DNA of 64,000 bases from Candidatus Poribacteria bacterium (GTDB lineage Bacteria > Poribacteria > WGA-4E > WGA-3G), in assembly GCA_965232115.1 (NCBI GenBank), contig OZ246958.1, positions 4,098,841 to 4,162,840 on the forward strand. The letters run 5' to 3'. The position numbers were made by a program, and so were the translations under genes. Positions 35,520 through 43,740 of this stretch are shown here, piece by piece (position 1 is the first letter of the stretch; each line of letters opens with the position of its first letter). Below the pieces are notes generated by a model. That model saw only the letters and a program-made list of their open reading frames with translations, was not told the DNA's origin and ran no database searches.

Positions 35520-35608
35520 CCGGTGTCCTTAGAATTGTGTTGTTATCCGGAAAAAATTAACGTATAATGTTTATCAAAATAGCGAACGTTGTGGAGGACT
35601 TTTTTAAA

Positions 35609-35833
35609 ATGCGTAGAATTGAAGAGATAACCGCATCATTACCGGCGCTGACAACCGCTGAGTTACATCATATTGAGCGGGTTATTCGTGATTTATATCG
35701 GGTGCGCCACGAGCCTGTCATCTACGATGATGACTACGGCATCTGGACAGAATACGATCAGGTATCAACGGCATCAGCAGTTTTTGAACTCTTTGATAAA
35801 ATAGAAAAACAAGAGGACAATACGAATGCCTAA
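35609..35833 (+). CDS. putative antitoxin of the MazF-like toxin (non-canonical, acidic C-terminus)
   Basis: 75-aa ORF with a GGAGGA RBS. Overlaps the toxin start by 8 nt (ATGCCTAA). Very acidic C-terminus (YDDDYGIWTEYDQ...EKQEDNTNA). Confidence 0.5.
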   Translation: MRRIEEITASLPALTTAELHHIERVIRDLYRVRHEPVIYDDDYGIWTEYDQVSTASAVFELFDKIEKQEDNTNA

Positions 35834-36143
35834 GCGCGGTGAAATCTGGTTAGCCGACCTTGGCGTGGCGGCAAAGACACGCCCTGTTCTGGTACTCAGC
35901 GTCCCTTTTTCAGATTCTGATTACGCGCTAATTACTGTCGTACCGCACACGACAAGTTCAAGAAGGTCCAATTTTGAAGTAAACCTTTCTGTGGCTGCTT
36001 TAAGACCCGGTGCTTTCAATGTTCAAGGACTGATGGCTGTCCCACCCGCCAAGTTCATTCGCAAACTCGGAGCATTACGGTCTGCGCAAATGGAACAGGT
36101 CGCGGCTAGAGTAAAAAAGTGGCTCGGATTTTCATCCAATTAA
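35826..36143 (+). CDS. PemK/MazF-family type II toxin (endoribonuclease)
   Basis: Hallmark N-terminus PKRGEIWLADLG...KTRPVLVLS. 105 aa. Confidence 0.8.
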   Translation: MPKRGEIWLADLGVAAKTRPVLVLSVPFSDSDYALITVVPHTTSSRRSNFEVNLSVAALRPGAFNVQGLMAVPPAKFIRKLGALRSAQMEQVAARVKKWLGFSSN

Positions 36144-37183
36144 CCAGCAGCCCCGATCTCAACTTCCTGCAAAACTGCTGCTGCCCGTTGTGCCAACTCA
36201 GTTGTAGTATCTCGCTTGAGAGCCCGATTTAAGTGTAAGATGGCGCGTTCATCTCCATCTCTTGCGAGTTCCAAAGCCTCCTCAAATCCTTTGTTTCCGT
36301 AACTGAAATCCCTTGCGATAACCGTCAAGTCAAGATCCTTCCAATAATACTGCAGTTCATCAGATTTCCAATTCTCATAGACATGTTCCCACGTAAGGGA
36401 GTTGAAAATATTCAGGTGCGGTTCAAGCATGTGCTCAGCGATCGGGTCATCGACAGCCTGATAGCGGTTGTCGAGCGACACGCGAAGTCGATCTTCAGTC
36501 AAATTCGGCAGTGCCTTATGGATCGTCAAAGCTGGGAAGATGAGCGTATCGCCAACTTCATAGTTCGTGGAGTGCCATTCACCCGACAATTCGTCCTCAT
36601 TAACGCAGAGACTGCCAGCACCGAGCGAAAAGTGGTGTTCCATGACCTTGTTGATCTTATGTGATCCGGGTAGGACTGCTAAGCCACCTAACTCAATCGG
36701 ACAATCTCCGACGGGTGCCCAACAGGTATAGGTCTGGAAATTGCCTTGGAAGTGGACGAAATCTTGATGGATCGGGGTTGTATGTGCCGTGTACTTCGGG
36801 AACCAGAGGCGCGCAATCTTTTGCGGATGCGGTAGCACCTCTCTACCGACAATCTTTTCCACCATATCGACGACTTCGTGCCAGTGACCGGAACGGTGGA
36901 ACGCTTCTAATTTATAGACTTCATGGTACACGTCTGTATATTCGGGATCGCCTTCGGTACATTGGGTCGAAATATCAGCGATGCCGTCCATCGGGTCGGT
37001 CCCCGCGACGAGCCAACCGCCCTTCTGCATTGTCGTTAGCATCTCTCGCCGTAACGCCCAGAGTTTGTCGGGATCTTGTAGGCACTTGAAGAAGAGATAC
37101 CCTTCTTCTGAGATCCGGTGCCGCAACTCTTCTGGATCGTTCATCGCATCGTTGGATATGCGAAGTTCTTTTATTTTTTCCAT
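36140..37183 (-). CDS. phytanoyl-CoA dioxygenase (PhyH) family protein
   Basis: PIHQDFVHF motif. The stop overlaps the toxin gene end on the opposite strand. Confidence 0.7.
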   Translation of the reverse strand: MEKIKELRISNDAMNDPEELRHRISEEGYLFFKCLQDPDKLWALRREMLTTMQKGGWLVAGTDPMDGIADISTQCTEGDPEYTDVYHEVYKLEAFHRSGHWHEVVDMVEKIVGREVLPHPQKIARLWFPKYTAHTTPIHQDFVHFQGNFQTYTCWAPVGDCPIELGGLAVLPGSHKINKVMEHHFSLGAGSLCVNEDELSGEWHSTNYEVGDTLIFPALTIHKALPNLTEDRLRVSLDNRYQAVDDPIAEHMLEPHLNIFNSLTWEHVYENWKSDELQYYWKDLDLTVIARDFSYGNKGFEEALELARDGDERAILHLNRALKRDTTTELAQRAAAVLQEVEIGAAG

Positions 37184-37295
37184 CTGAATTTCTCCTCGCA
37201 TCTATTCGTGTCGGTCTCCGTAGATGGGGTACTTCTCTTTTTTCCGTATTCATAGTATAACACATACAAAACGAAAGATTCAATTTTTTTCTTTC

Positions 37296-38129
37296 CTACC
37301 GGTTCTTGCGATTTTTCGCAAGCCAATCAACAGCAAAGTCCACAATAGCACGTTGTGGCATGAGTTGGCAGTTTGCGATGCCGACCTTGCCACGCCGAAC
37401 TACTTTGCCCGCGTCAGAACGCAAAAAATCTTCACCGAGGCGATGGAAATCTGAATCGTCTACATCAATATCTTCAAAGGTAGTCCAGGTTCTTGAACCC
37501 TCTTGCGAGATCGGGGCACCCTCCTGCACAACGCGCTTGGTTGGAAAGTCCGCTCGGTATTCTGCAAGATGTATAGAGGTATTGCTCGAATGCCCGACAC
37601 CGAGAAGCAGGACAGAACCCTCCAAATCGTAGATTCTGGCAAGCGGTGAATTCTCGCCCATGCCAAACGCCAAGGAGTGGTTGCTTATGATGTAAGATGC
37701 TTGGGGCCCACTTGCGCAAAAGGAGCTCTGCGGATGCACACTGCGAAGAACGTTCTTTTGTTTTCGGAAGGTTTCGGCGATTTTGCCCATTGAACGGGTC
37801 GGAGTCAAATCGGGATCATAGGCAGGCATCGTCTCACGTATGATTTGCCACCACGATTCAGGGACAGGTGGGTTTTCCCATTGACTTGGATCGCTGAGGT
37901 CGGTCGAGTGGGCCGGCATTATAAGTGTACCCGTTTCACCTAAAACCTTCTGAAGGGCGAGGATAACAGCGACAGCACCGCCGCAGACCCACCCCAACGC
38001 ACTCAAGGAGGAATGGACTAATAAGACCGTGCCCTTTTCGACACCGAGTGCTTTAAAATCCGTCTGAAGCAACTCAACTGTAGCGAGTGTTTTTGTCTTG
38101 TCAACAATCTGACCTTCGGGCATTATCAA
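37296..38129 (-). CDS. aminoglycoside N(3)-acetyltransferase (AAC(3)/YokD family)
   Basis: Characteristic AAC(3) blocks: LLVHSSLSALGWVCGG, GTLIMPAHS, SVLLLGVGHSSNTSIHLAEYRA. Confidence 0.8.
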   Translation of the reverse strand: MIMPEGQIVDKTKTLATVELLQTDFKALGVEKGTVLLVHSSLSALGWVCGGAVAVILALQKVLGETGTLIMPAHSTDLSDPSQWENPPVPESWWQIIRETMPAYDPDLTPTRSMGKIAETFRKQKNVLRSVHPQSSFCASGPQASYIISNHSLAFGMGENSPLARIYDLEGSVLLLGVGHSSNTSIHLAEYRADFPTKRVVQEGAPISQEGSRTWTTFEDIDVDDSDFHRLGEDFLRSDAGKVVRRGKVGIANCQLMPQRAIVDFAVDWLAKNRKNR

Positions 38130-39795: not shown

Positions 39796-40554
39796 TCATT
39801 TTGATTCTGGGTTCGGCTTGCGACCTCCGAAGATAGCATGCCCAGCCTTCATCCAGAAAACATCAACATCAACAAATCCGGCTTCATCAAGCCATTTAAG
39901 TTGATCAAACAAAGATGACGGTTTATCAATCGAATCTGGGTCGGGTTCGGGTTGTGCATAATGGTTCCAACCCAATTCACGAAACTGTTCATATCCTCTC
40001 AAATCACCATCCAAATCCAGTGAACGTTGACGCACGGCTTCGTTCCAAGCCTTCGCTGCAAGCCTTTGTCCAAAAGGATCCATCGGCTCAGTCAGATCAG
40101 CGATAATGAAACTGCCACCCGGCATCAGGAGCGATGCCATATCTTTGAACAGTGTTTGTTTCTCAACAGCATCTAAGTGATGGATCGCCAGAGAAGATAC
40201 AATAGCATGGACGGGGACAGGCAATTCGCGCCAATCGCTTGCAGCTAAATCGAAGAGGTGTGTCTTAAAACGCTCTCCATAAGCAGCAAGTGCCTTTTCG
40301 GCGTGAGCAAGCATTGTCGGAGAACCGTCTAAACCGTAGACGTGGCATTCAGGAAACCTATCCAACAGTGCCCGCGTAAGGAGTCCAGCACCGCAACAGA
40401 GATCGAGAATATAAGTGGGTTTCGATGGAGATGGAATCACTTCACAAATGCAATCAATTTGGATCTCTCGGTCAGGGACGAAGTATTTGCCGTAGTCAAT
40501 GAAATCTTGGGAATTTTCCTCTGCCCATTGCGGTTTAGTAATAGAATCTTGCAT
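39796..40554 (-). CDS. class I SAM-dependent methyltransferase
   Basis: ILDLCCGAGLLTRALL motif I, with a downstream GLDGSPTM. The start is set at the internal Met (MQDSI) to avoid upstream junk. Confidence 0.7.
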   Translation of the reverse strand: MQDSITKPQWAEENSQDFIDYGKYFVPDREIQIDCICEVIPSPSKPTYILDLCCGAGLLTRALLDRFPECHVYGLDGSPTMLAHAEKALAAYGERFKTHLFDLAASDWRELPVPVHAIVSSLAIHHLDAVEKQTLFKDMASLLMPGGSFIIADLTEPMDPFGQRLAAKAWNEAVRQRSLDLDGDLRGYEQFRELGWNHYAQPEPDPDSIDKPSSLFDQLKWLDEAGFVDVDVFWMKAGHAIFGGRKPNPESK

Positions 40555-40582
40555 AACATATATCTCTGGGTAACGTTTAAAA

Positions 40583-41479
40583 CTATGATGCCAAGTCGTC
40601 AAGCATTTGGCGAATTTTCTGTTCACCACTATCAATAAATAACGGAGCCAATGGACCTCTACCGTGCAGGGTTTGGAGTAGCGTGTCAATTTGTATCATA
40701 CGTTGTTGCGGTGTGCGACACTTGCGCCATTTTTTTACGAACTCACGAGCGGGTTGTGGATTCCCAGTCCGTAGGGACCGAACACTTTTGCGCCACTCCT
40801 GCCACCTGAAGGCATGTTCACAATTCGGACATTCGAGTTTTTCATCCTTCTTTTTTAGACTCTTTCGGTAAGCCCGCCATCGCCGTTTGTAGCCGCAGAC
40901 GGTACATTCAATATTACCGTGCTGATGGAGGGCGACGCTTTGACATTTGGGACATTGCAACTCAGGATCGGATCGCCAATTTCTGGAGGTTCGCTCCACT
41001 GGCGGTGGATCCGGTCTACGGACGAGCTCAAGACAGTGAGGACAGGGTAAGAGGACACGGGTTCTCACCGACTGCTTATAGGCTTCCTGGGACCATGTTT
41101 TACCACAGGTGCATCGCAACACAACTTCTTTCTGTAGAACGGCGCGACAATCAAAACATCGCGGGGTGTCTCGGAGGGCTTGACGGCAGTCGCGCCAGAG
41201 GAGTCGTCCGGTGCAGTGGGGGCAGTGAAACCAGTGTTCGTGAGTTCCGCCTTCGCCTTTACTAAAGAGCGGGTCAATCCGGCGCGTGATCTTCGTTCTG
41301 CATTTTGGACATGGCACACGTCCCTCGCGATAAACATCGGCGACTGTGGCGATGTCTGCACAGCGAGCGTAGAGTTCCCAACCGACATCGTGTAAAAGTG
41401 TATCTTCATAGATGCCGAGTCGAGCATATCGGTAAAGTTGACGGATTTTGATGGGTTTGACCCGCGGTGCCCAGTCCAT
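40583..41479 (-). CDS. cysteine-rich multi-zinc-ribbon protein (8 CxxC pairs), basic, hypothetical
   Basis: CPKC, CPHC, CFDC, CTCG, CPHC, CPKC, CTVC and CPNC, spaced as ~4 Zn-ribbons. Lys/Arg-rich. 298 aa. Confidence 0.55.
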   Translation of the reverse strand: MDWAPRVKPIKIRQLYRYARLGIYEDTLLHDVGWELYARCADIATVADVYREGRVPCPKCRTKITRRIDPLFSKGEGGTHEHWFHCPHCTGRLLWRDCRQALRDTPRCFDCRAVLQKEVVLRCTCGKTWSQEAYKQSVRTRVLLPCPHCLELVRRPDPPPVERTSRNWRSDPELQCPKCQSVALHQHGNIECTVCGYKRRWRAYRKSLKKKDEKLECPNCEHAFRWQEWRKSVRSLRTGNPQPAREFVKKWRKCRTPQQRMIQIDTLLQTLHGRGPLAPLFIDSGEQKIRQMLDDLAS

Positions 41480-43553: not shown

Positions 43554-43740
43554 TGTGTTATGTCCCTATGCGTGATCTGAAGGTTTGAAAACAAAGTGGC
43601 TGGTTCTCCTGTTTAATCCATCTCACATCATACACCAATTTATCCCAATTGTCCACTGAATTGTTTTATAAAAAAGCACTCTGGCGTGAGATTGGACGCC
43701 AGAGTGGAAAAAAGGTTATATATTTCAAGCCTAAAGATTA

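Follow-up and report, generated by a model that had tools for sequence, protein, structure and literature searches.

A basic Poribacteria protein with four predicted zinc ribbons set into the helical core of an undescribed bacterial family

We analysed a 64,000-nucleotide stretch of DNA from a Candidatus Poribacteria bacterium (the window; assembly GCA_965232115.1, contig OZ246958.1, positions 4,098,841 to 4,162,840), in which a reverse-strand gene encodes a basic, cysteine-rich protein of 298 residues. The protein would consist of two parts: a helical core formed by the N-terminal 52 and the C-terminal 60 residues, common to a large family of ~200-residue bacterial proteins, and an array of four predicted Cys4 zinc ribbons inserted between the two core halves. 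By sequence comparison, the Poribacteria form is the scaffold of that family with its ribbon cassette expanded from one unit to four and with ~25 net positive charges added. The family is undescribed; zinc-ribbon proteins themselves are a known structural kind. We put the probability of polyanion binding by the array, with RNA or DNA as the most plausible ligand, at roughly 40%.

Cysteine pairs, repeats and helical core

The gene is real and under strong purifying selection, with pairwise ratios of nonsynonymous to synonymous substitution rates (dN/dS) of 0.06-0.10 against ten orthologues. A word-seeded homology search returned 111 clusters, mostly full-length, at 39-87% identity, of which two only were named, both as 'hypothetical protein [Candidatus Poribacteria bacterium]'. 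An exact-sequence look-up of the protein found nothing on record, and no paralogue was found elsewhere in the window. Scanning one genome per species of the Genome Taxonomy Database (GTDB), we identified a relative in 118 genomes and analysed the loci of the 80 best, 77 of which were titled Poribacteria and three 'uncultured bacterium'. The closest relatives of the window locus were 91-92% identical in the zinc-ribbon gene and 88-98% identical in the flanking genes.

Nineteen residues of the product are cysteines (6.4%), and its composition (K+R = 58, D+E = 33) gives a net charge of ~ +25 and an isoelectric point (pI) of 9.6 for a mass of 35 kDa. Most of this charge belongs to the array (K+R 40, D+E 19), with a contribution from the C-terminal helices. 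Eight CxxC or CxC pairs start at residues 57 (CPKC), 86 (CPHC), 108 (CFDC), 123 (CTC), 146 (CPHC), 176 (CPKC), 192 (CTVC) and 217 (CPNC). Shuffled sequences of the same composition (n = 100,000) held 2.2 pairs on average and at least eight in 0.04% of cases. Conservation of the cysteines is the stronger argument for a genuine pattern: all 16 paired cysteines, and C98, were invariant in 37 full-length homologues (40-84% identity), and in a wider set of 90 sequences 14 of the 16 were invariant, with C57/C60 conserved at a level of at least 90%. Other invariant positions were W95, W129, Y134, S137, R141, W201, W226, W229 and F247, followed by W251, D265, L267, H272, G275, L293 and D294.

An AlphaFold2 model built on the 90-sequence alignment had a mean predicted local distance difference test score (pLDDT) of 82 and a predicted template modelling score (pTM) of 0.59. 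It placed helices 9-20 and 26-52 before four knuckle-hairpin units, and helices 242-251, 257-273 and 286-297 after them. Every cysteine pair lay at a beta-hairpin turn, with strands on both sides of the knuckles, and a short helix closed each unit (residues 95-104, 131-140, 201-210 and 226-232); loops 71-80 and 159-172 were disordered. The closing helix is Trp-anchored and basic in ribbon 1 (W95, C98, R99, L102, R103), is accompanied by W129, Y134, S137 and R141 in ribbon 2, and is basic again in ribbon 3 (W201, K209, D212), where the two knuckles are 12 residues apart. Conserved motifs of the core are W3..R6, I12-R13-x-L15-Y16, G22, D25, V32-G33, L36 and R39-C40 in its N-terminal half, and T238-G-N-P241, F247, W251, D265-x-L267-x-Q269-x-x-H272-G-x-G275, A278-P279, F281 and L293-D294 in its C-terminal half. 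Among these, R39-C40, D265 and H272 may make up a polar cluster of conserved residues.

Judged by alignment, the ribbon units are true internal repeats. The half-units '[V/L]PCPxC...RRP' at 57 and 146 matched each other in hhalign with 96.6% probability, and the half-units 'CxxC(G)-x3-W-x2-[C/Y/W]-[R/K]-x-[S/A]-[L/V]' at 86, 123, 192 and 217 did so with 78-97% in five of six comparisons and 42% in the sixth. We infer zinc binding from the sequence, with four putative Cys4 ligand sets: 57/60/86/89, 108/111/123/125, 176/179/192/195 and 146/149/217/220, the third nested in the fourth. That C146/C149 and C217/C220 form one site, with ribbon 3 nested in its loop, is suggested by three-ribbon relatives, in which the equivalent knuckles are directly consecutive; the same forms support the nested pairing in that the unit they are without is exactly C176-C195. 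A fourth ribbon enclosing the third would resemble the Cys-rich domain of DnaJ, in which four CxxCxGxG motifs lie within ~70 residues, the first and last forming an outer zinc site and the middle two an inner one. The DnaJ domain has no helices after its knuckles, however, and the window protein and its 37 relatives had no match to the Pfam model DnaJ_CXXCXGXG.

Several orthologues of 342-443 residues (P0052-P0059, P0062-P0064) carry tandem low-complexity insertions of the 'GERKEARGQSAPT' type at two sites, behind the C108xxC111 knuckle and within the 159-172 linker. Such insertions add up to ~145 residues and leave the conserved motifs untouched; therefore the array tolerates changes of length between its knuckles.

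A larger family with variable ribbon number

When 1.84 billion representative proteins were searched exhaustively with a profile, 627 clusters (counted at 50% identity) matched at E <= 1e-3, and 356 at E <= 1e-10. Besides the ~300-residue Poribacteria type, most matches were ~200 residues long and aligned at profile positions 2-67 and ~210-298. These short proteins have the N-terminal helices of the Poribacteria form (WAPRV..KIRRLYE.DA.G..DEELIDEVG..LYARC), a single zinc ribbon (CPxC ... CxxCGW...W..Y) and C-terminal helices that are shared as well (KMLLID.LIH.FH ... RP.A.NLIEG ... FLD.L.YG). Compared by hhalign, the two forms matched with 99.95% probability (E = 1.6e-37) over 169 aligned columns. 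The AlphaFold2 model of one short member (pLDDT 89, pTM 0.83) was a helical bundle with the ribbon protruding from it. The few short members that carry a taxonomic name come from Anaerolineae and Dehalococcoidia (Chloroflexota), and the short family has no Pfam or NCBIfam model.

In alignment with the short family, residues 3-40 of the window protein carry the N-terminal family motif W-A-x-R-V...[IL]-R-x-L-Y...G...D...V-G..L-x-A-R-C. The C-terminal family motif, I-D-x-L-[LI]-[HQ]-x-x-H ... [LF]-I-[DE]-G ... L-D-x-L-A, is present too; D265 and H272 match a D and an H that are invariant, or nearly so, in the short family, whose first His is replaced here by Q269. Family members have at least one Cys4 ribbon between the helical halves, with a second knuckle followed by W-x3-W/Y, and the window protein has four such units. 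By alignment C217xxC220 corresponds to the short family's second knuckle, an assignment that is ambiguous because hhalign put the short knuckle on the similar preceding unit.

Alignment of short, intermediate and long forms gave a series of architectures. The one-ribbon form consists of the first knuckle and the last; three-ribbon forms (for example P0121, P0124, P0128 and P0135) are those described above; the window protein and its relatives have four ribbons, and P0126 and P0130 have five. Among 272 sequences that passed a crude full-length filter, 148 had two knuckles, 105 had eight, and a few had six, nine or ten. Median net charge and pI were +27 and 9.7 in the Poribacteria form, compared with +2 and 8.2 in the single-ribbon family. 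We also observed rare fusions of the single-ribbon domain (P0258, P0222, P0164, P0220, P0213 and P0245), each seen once or twice, which could be gene-calling artefacts. The partners were GNAT (twice), GNAT with a Pol-beta nucleotidyltransferase and DUF4037, NUDIX, DHHA1, HEAT repeats and DUF123.

No named family fitted in searches of Pfam, NCBIfam, PADLOC, PHROGs, and the sequences and folds of the Protein Data Bank (PDB); the library scans covered the window protein, 37 relatives, and single-ribbon and intermediate members. NCBIfam gave only sub-threshold zinc-ribbon matches, such as TFS and HVO_0416, and the window protein had no match in PADLOC or PHROGs at E <= 0.01. Against solved structures, searches with the single sequence and two profiles found only matches over short ribbon segments (ZNF512, Rpb12 and eL37; E >= 4e-4). 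Weak but consistent matches pointed to the zinc ribbons TFS, Rpb12, eL43 and Zn_ribbon_6. The Cys4 ribbons of transcription and translation (TFS/TFIIS, Rpb12/RpoP, Pol I A12.2, eL43 and eS31) likewise have CxxC knuckles at beta-hairpin turns, 12-25 residues apart, and the best scores against such models were E = 3e-4 for TIGR01384, 0.012 for Rpb12, 0.0098 for A12.2 (Foldseek) and 0.002 for eL43 (short family). Unlike these matches, however, which score far below family cut-offs and have no homology outside the ribbon, the window protein strings together four ribbons, each with a Trp-anchored basic helix, in an array inside a helical domain.

Two Pfam models scored above their cut-offs, and we rejected membership in both. 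TackOD1 (PF18551) reached 35.7 bits against a cut-off of 32, but over only profile positions 90-135 of 188 (residues 175-225), and 14 of the 37 relatives matched it (E <= 0.01). TackOD1 is an output domain of archaeal response regulators with 11 cysteines (five CxxC and an HxxC), which in TACK archaea stands alone or in fusion with REC domains, and its function 'remains obscure' (Galperin et al. 2018, PMC5847659); we found no mention of it in the literature beyond that paper. It shares with the window protein a wealth of cysteines and several CxxC pairs, whereas its 11-Cys pattern and its TACK-archaeal REC context are not those of the window protein. Trm112p (PF03966), the model of a zinc-knuckle protein that activates methyltransferases, reached 24.8 bits against a cut-off of 22, but in a discontinuous alignment of residues 86-225 to profile positions 10-36 of 40. 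The Haloferax C(P)XCG micro-proteins (HVO_2753, HVO_0416 and HVO_0758) have knuckles of a similar type; in the window protein five knuckles are CPxC and two are CxxCG/CxCG, to which the family consensus adds a third. Weak matches of this kind were HVO_0416 in NCBIfam (E = 5e-4, 19.9 bits against 80) and 6ydh in Foldseek (E = 1), and the micro-proteins differ in having fewer than 70 residues, one or two fingers and no helical core. Our literature search found no paper that combined Poribacteria with a zinc ribbon.

A preliminary description, made from the letters of the window alone, had proposed a basic protein with eight regularly spaced pairs, about four zinc ribbons and no nameable family. 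The pairs and the basic composition were confirmed by the reading frame and the invariant cysteines. The spacing is in fact uneven (distances of 29, 22, 15, 23, 30, 16 and 25), but the pairs do sit in real repeats. Four ribbons are supported by the invariant Cys4 sets, the hairpin knuckles of the model, the ribbon-model matches and the internal repeats, and the homology searches assigned the protein to no zinc-ribbon family of described function. What that description overlooked is the helical core, which takes up one third of the protein (residues 1-52 and 238-298) and defines a much larger family of single-ribbon proteins, itself without a name.

Possible function of the array

Our best guess, from the charge and the type of fold, is that the array binds nucleic acid. 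Each ribbon ends in a short Arg/Lys-rich helix in which an invariant Trp serves as the anchor. The single ribbon of the ancestor would have multiplied to four in Poribacteria, with the gain of ~25 net positive charges, and RNA or DNA would be bound as a polyanion along the extended basic surface of the array. Zinc would act as a structural staple only, and the helical core would carry the ancestral function of the family. The models that matched, weakly, were all zinc ribbons, and their sources are components of RNA polymerase and the ribosome (TFS, Rpb12, Pol I A12.2, eL43 and eS31). The sequence of the 298-residue protein contains no signal peptide or hydrophobic segment; as part of this reading, and as tentatively, we place the protein in the cytoplasm.

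Several observations weigh against nucleic-acid binding. Zinc ribbons also mediate protein-protein contacts, and the cysteine pairing on which the ribbons are drawn comes from comparative architecture and not from the geometry of the model. Zinc binding is reported to be lacking in some proteins of the C(P)XCG type (PMC11241148). None of the neighbouring genes suggests a part in the metabolism of DNA or RNA. Because the single-ribbon relatives are near neutral, nucleic-acid binding may be an addition specific to Poribacteria and not the function of the family. Some of the alternatives considered below could be compatible with nucleic-acid binding.

A bolder extension, which we regard as a long shot, is that this is an undescribed bacterial domain with an expandable ribbon cassette (1, 3, 4, 5 or more units on one scaffold), a prokaryotic counterpart of the tandem zinc-finger arrays of eukaryotes, and that the Poribacteria version reads an extended, possibly sequence-specific stretch of DNA or RNA, acting as a factor that is specific to the phylum and associated with the chromosome or the ribosome. 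Should the array indeed bind nucleic acid, the one-, three-, four- and five-ribbon forms would be a natural experiment on how repeat expansion lengthens a binding surface.

Poribacteria are uncultivated sponge symbionts, so widespread unannotated genes are among the few leads to their lineage-specific biology, and this one is found in 118 species-level genomes under strong purifying selection. The modular architecture is unusual in that the helical core stays constant and the number of ribbons varies. The family thus marked out is sizeable, with members in Chloroflexota, Poribacteria and many metagenomes; neither Pfam nor NCBIfam has a model of it, none of its structures has been solved, and its definition would help annotation. 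We consider these results of moderate importance, as the definition of a family and as a candidate lineage-specific nucleic-acid-binding factor of sponge symbionts. So far they overturn no accepted idea.

The residues that are invariant or nearly so across the whole superfamily (R-C, D-x3-H-x2-H and R-P-x-A-x-N) lie in the core. They could mark the active site of an enzyme or of a small-ligand-binding protein, formed by the polar cluster of R39-C40 on helix 2 and D265, Q/H269 and H272 on the C-terminal helix, with the array recruiting or positioning a polyanionic substrate. The rare fusions to enzymes of nucleotide or acyl chemistry (those with GNAT, the nucleotidyltransferase, NUDIX and DHHA1) would fit such a role, subject to the possible gene-calling artefacts noted above. 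However, the first His is Gln in sponge-clade Poribacteria, and the Asn of RP-x-A-x-N has no conserved counterpart there. In a comparison with up-down helical bundles of the HEPN and KNTase_C type, HEPN-like ones recurred among the fold matches, none of them significant, and the HEPN motif Rx4-6H was absent from both alignments, in which the conserved order is D-x3-H-x2-H ... R-P-x-A-x-N. We consider a catalytic or ligand-binding core unlikely, if still credible.

Table 1. Positions, in the 64,000-nucleotide window, of the zinc-ribbon gene, the parts of its product and the two flanking genes
Feature	Position	Strand	Details and evidence
Zinc-ribbon protein, complete coding sequence	40583..41479	-	ATG start, 298 residues and stop codon; list of open reading frames
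Residues 1-52, N-terminal half of conserved helical core	41324..41479	-	helices 9-20 and 26-52; pLDDT ~90; conservation
Residues 53-106, predicted zinc ribbon 1	41162..41323	-	knuckles C57xxC60, C86xxC89; conservation, AlphaFold2, repeats
Residues 107-142, predicted zinc ribbon 2	41054..41161	-	knuckles C108xxC111, C123xC125; conservation, AlphaFold2, repeats
Residues 143-158, predicted zinc ribbon 4, first knuckle	41006..41053	-	L144-P145-C146xxC149 ... R154-x-P156; homologous to first knuckle of ribbon 1 by hhalign
Residues 159-172, variable disordered linker	40964..41005	-	pLDDT < 50; repeat insertions in some orthologues
Residues 173-212, predicted zinc ribbon 3	40844..40963	-	knuckles C176xxC179, C192xxC195; TFS, TFIIB and TackOD1 matches fall here
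Residues 213-237, predicted zinc ribbon 4, second knuckle and helix	40769..40843	-	C217xxC220; helix 226-232 (W226, W229, R230); alignments with short family
Residues 238-298, C-terminal half of helical core	40586..40768	-	conservation, AlphaFold2, hhalign with short family
SAM-methyltransferase (Methyltransf_25)	ATG at 40554, 28-nt gap downstream of zinc-ribbon gene	-	Pfam
Gfo/Idh/MocA oxidoreductase (GFO_IDH_MocA)	ends 41501, 21-nt gap upstream of zinc-ribbon gene		Pfam

Genomic context

We examined the contexts of seven homologues at 41-84% identity and of three single-ribbon proteins, together with the 80 Poribacteria loci and 86 single-ribbon loci. There is no conserved operon partner. 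The flanking genes given in the preliminary description, a methyltransferase dependent on S-adenosylmethionine (SAM) on the same strand and a Gfo/Idh/MocA oxidoreductase, are indeed present (Table 1). A functional link to the methyltransferase genes that its title stressed is not supported, and the conserved neighbourhood for which it proposed a search yielded no recurring partner among the loci examined.

The methyltransferase was present in 14 of the 80 Poribacteria loci, in 13 of them directly downstream and in the remaining one at a distance of ~1.6 kb. Elsewhere among the 80, the first conserved gene downstream encoded a LamG-like protein, a second methyltransferase, an AAC(3)-type acetyltransferase or PhyH, and an 84%-identical orthologue is followed instead by an IS605-type OrfB/TnpB gene (L006 7022..8140). 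The segment 38150..40554 (-), up to the AAC(3) gene, is a variable slot in which Methyltransf_25, LamG-like and Methyltransf_11 genes occur in differing combinations (loci L009-L088). Taken mechanically, the longest open reading frame of the methyltransferase spans 39796..40689 (-), with a TTG start that lies within the zinc-ribbon gene by 107 nt. A real overlap need not be assumed, because the methyltransferase starting at ATG 40554 can be aligned along its whole length (~756 nt) in orthologous loci.

The Gfo/Idh/MocA gene lies upstream in 72 of the 80 Poribacteria loci, a linkage that is synteny among related genomes; in lineages farther removed the two genes are no longer immediate neighbours. 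Lineages at 41-72% identity had rpsT, purE, hypothetical genes, sulfatases or a sigma factor gene beside the homologue; in the P0092 loci Gfo/Idh/MocA and methyltransferase-domain genes lie 2-3 kb upstream without being adjacent. The single-ribbon family had no recurrent partner, either in the three contexts or in an all-against-all clustering of flanking open reading frames from the 86 loci. The largest of those clusters, with eight of the 86 loci each, were short-chain dehydrogenase-like and ABC transporter-like, which are large paralogous families.

These comparisons bear on the possibility that the protein is a protein-protein adaptor like Trm112, activating or stabilising one or more adjacent SAM-methyltransferases. 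Such a role would fit the above-cut-off Trm112p score, which 14 of the 37 family members share, and the methyltransferase gene 28 nt on, with no terminator-like site between the two on that strand. But the score reduces to CxxC...CxxC, as the match is stretched over the whole of residues 86-225 and covers only part of the profile. The methyltransferase itself is missing from most of the 80 loci and gives way to TnpB in the 84%-identical orthologue; among more distant contexts a methyltransferase-domain gene occurs only in that of P0092, ~3 kb upstream and non-adjacent, and no gene recurs beside the family in the 86 single-ribbon loci. Trm112 proteins are small and not highly basic, and apart from the adjoining methyltransferase gene the window protein differs from them in size, charge and architecture. 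We regard an adaptor of this kind as quite improbable.

We judge similarly improbable a thiol or zinc sensor or regulator, which could be a redox switch or else a factor of the anti-sigma type whose zinc is released upon oxidation. Among the 19 cysteines are the conserved C40, C98 and C254, which lie outside the ribbon pairs, and the window has an extracytoplasmic function (ECF)-type sigma-70 gene three genes upstream; a sigma factor gene also divergently adjoins the homologue in two unrelated contexts. However, the nearby sigma factor genes (in the window, P0089 and P0262) fit chance, as does a cluster of sigma-factor-like reading frames, identified only by sequence and by the Pfam annotation of L093, near four of the 86 single-ribbon loci. 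The protein has no HxxxCxxC anti-sigma motif and no anti-sigma Pfam match was found for it, and the other repeats have Tyr or Trp at the position of C98, which suggests that the role of this cysteine is structural. A metallothionein-like zinc store or buffer, to which the high cysteine content and the four predicted metal sites might point, is very improbable given only ~4 Zn per 35 kDa, the conservation of the folded core and of invariant non-cysteine positions (W95, W129, W201, W226, W229, R141, D265 and H272), and no metal-homeostasis gene nearby.

A terminator-like hairpin (11 pairs and a T-run) follows the ECF-type sigma-70 gene at 43627..43706 (-), with a promoter-like site just beyond it; both are consensus matches only. 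Together they suggest co-transcription of the HAD, Gfo/Idh/MocA, zinc-ribbon and methyltransferase genes as a single unit. In the window clade a PhyH-family dioxygenase gene (36140..37201, -) lies 2-5 kb downstream of the zinc-ribbon gene, and a PhyH gene is likewise found, on the opposite strand, in two distant lineages (66% and 46% identity; L001 8841..9635 and L089 8972..9919). This recurrence may be left over from old synteny, or may be due to chance in genomes rich in PhyH genes.

Searches of the 64-kb window found neither a tRNA gene nor, at gathering score, any Rfam family. Between the variable slot and the PhyH gene lies a full-length aminoglycoside 3-N-acetyltransferase gene (37296..38129, -; Antibiotic_NAT, E = 2e-95); it is conserved in synteny, at 80-90% identity, in the majority of related Poribacteria loci that we examined. 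Farther on, a PemK/MazF-type toxin gene (35826..36143, +; Pfam E = 2e-14) is preceded, with an 8-nt overlap, by an open reading frame of 88 residues (35567..35833, +) without a Pfam match, whose position before the toxin gene suggests an unclassified antitoxin.

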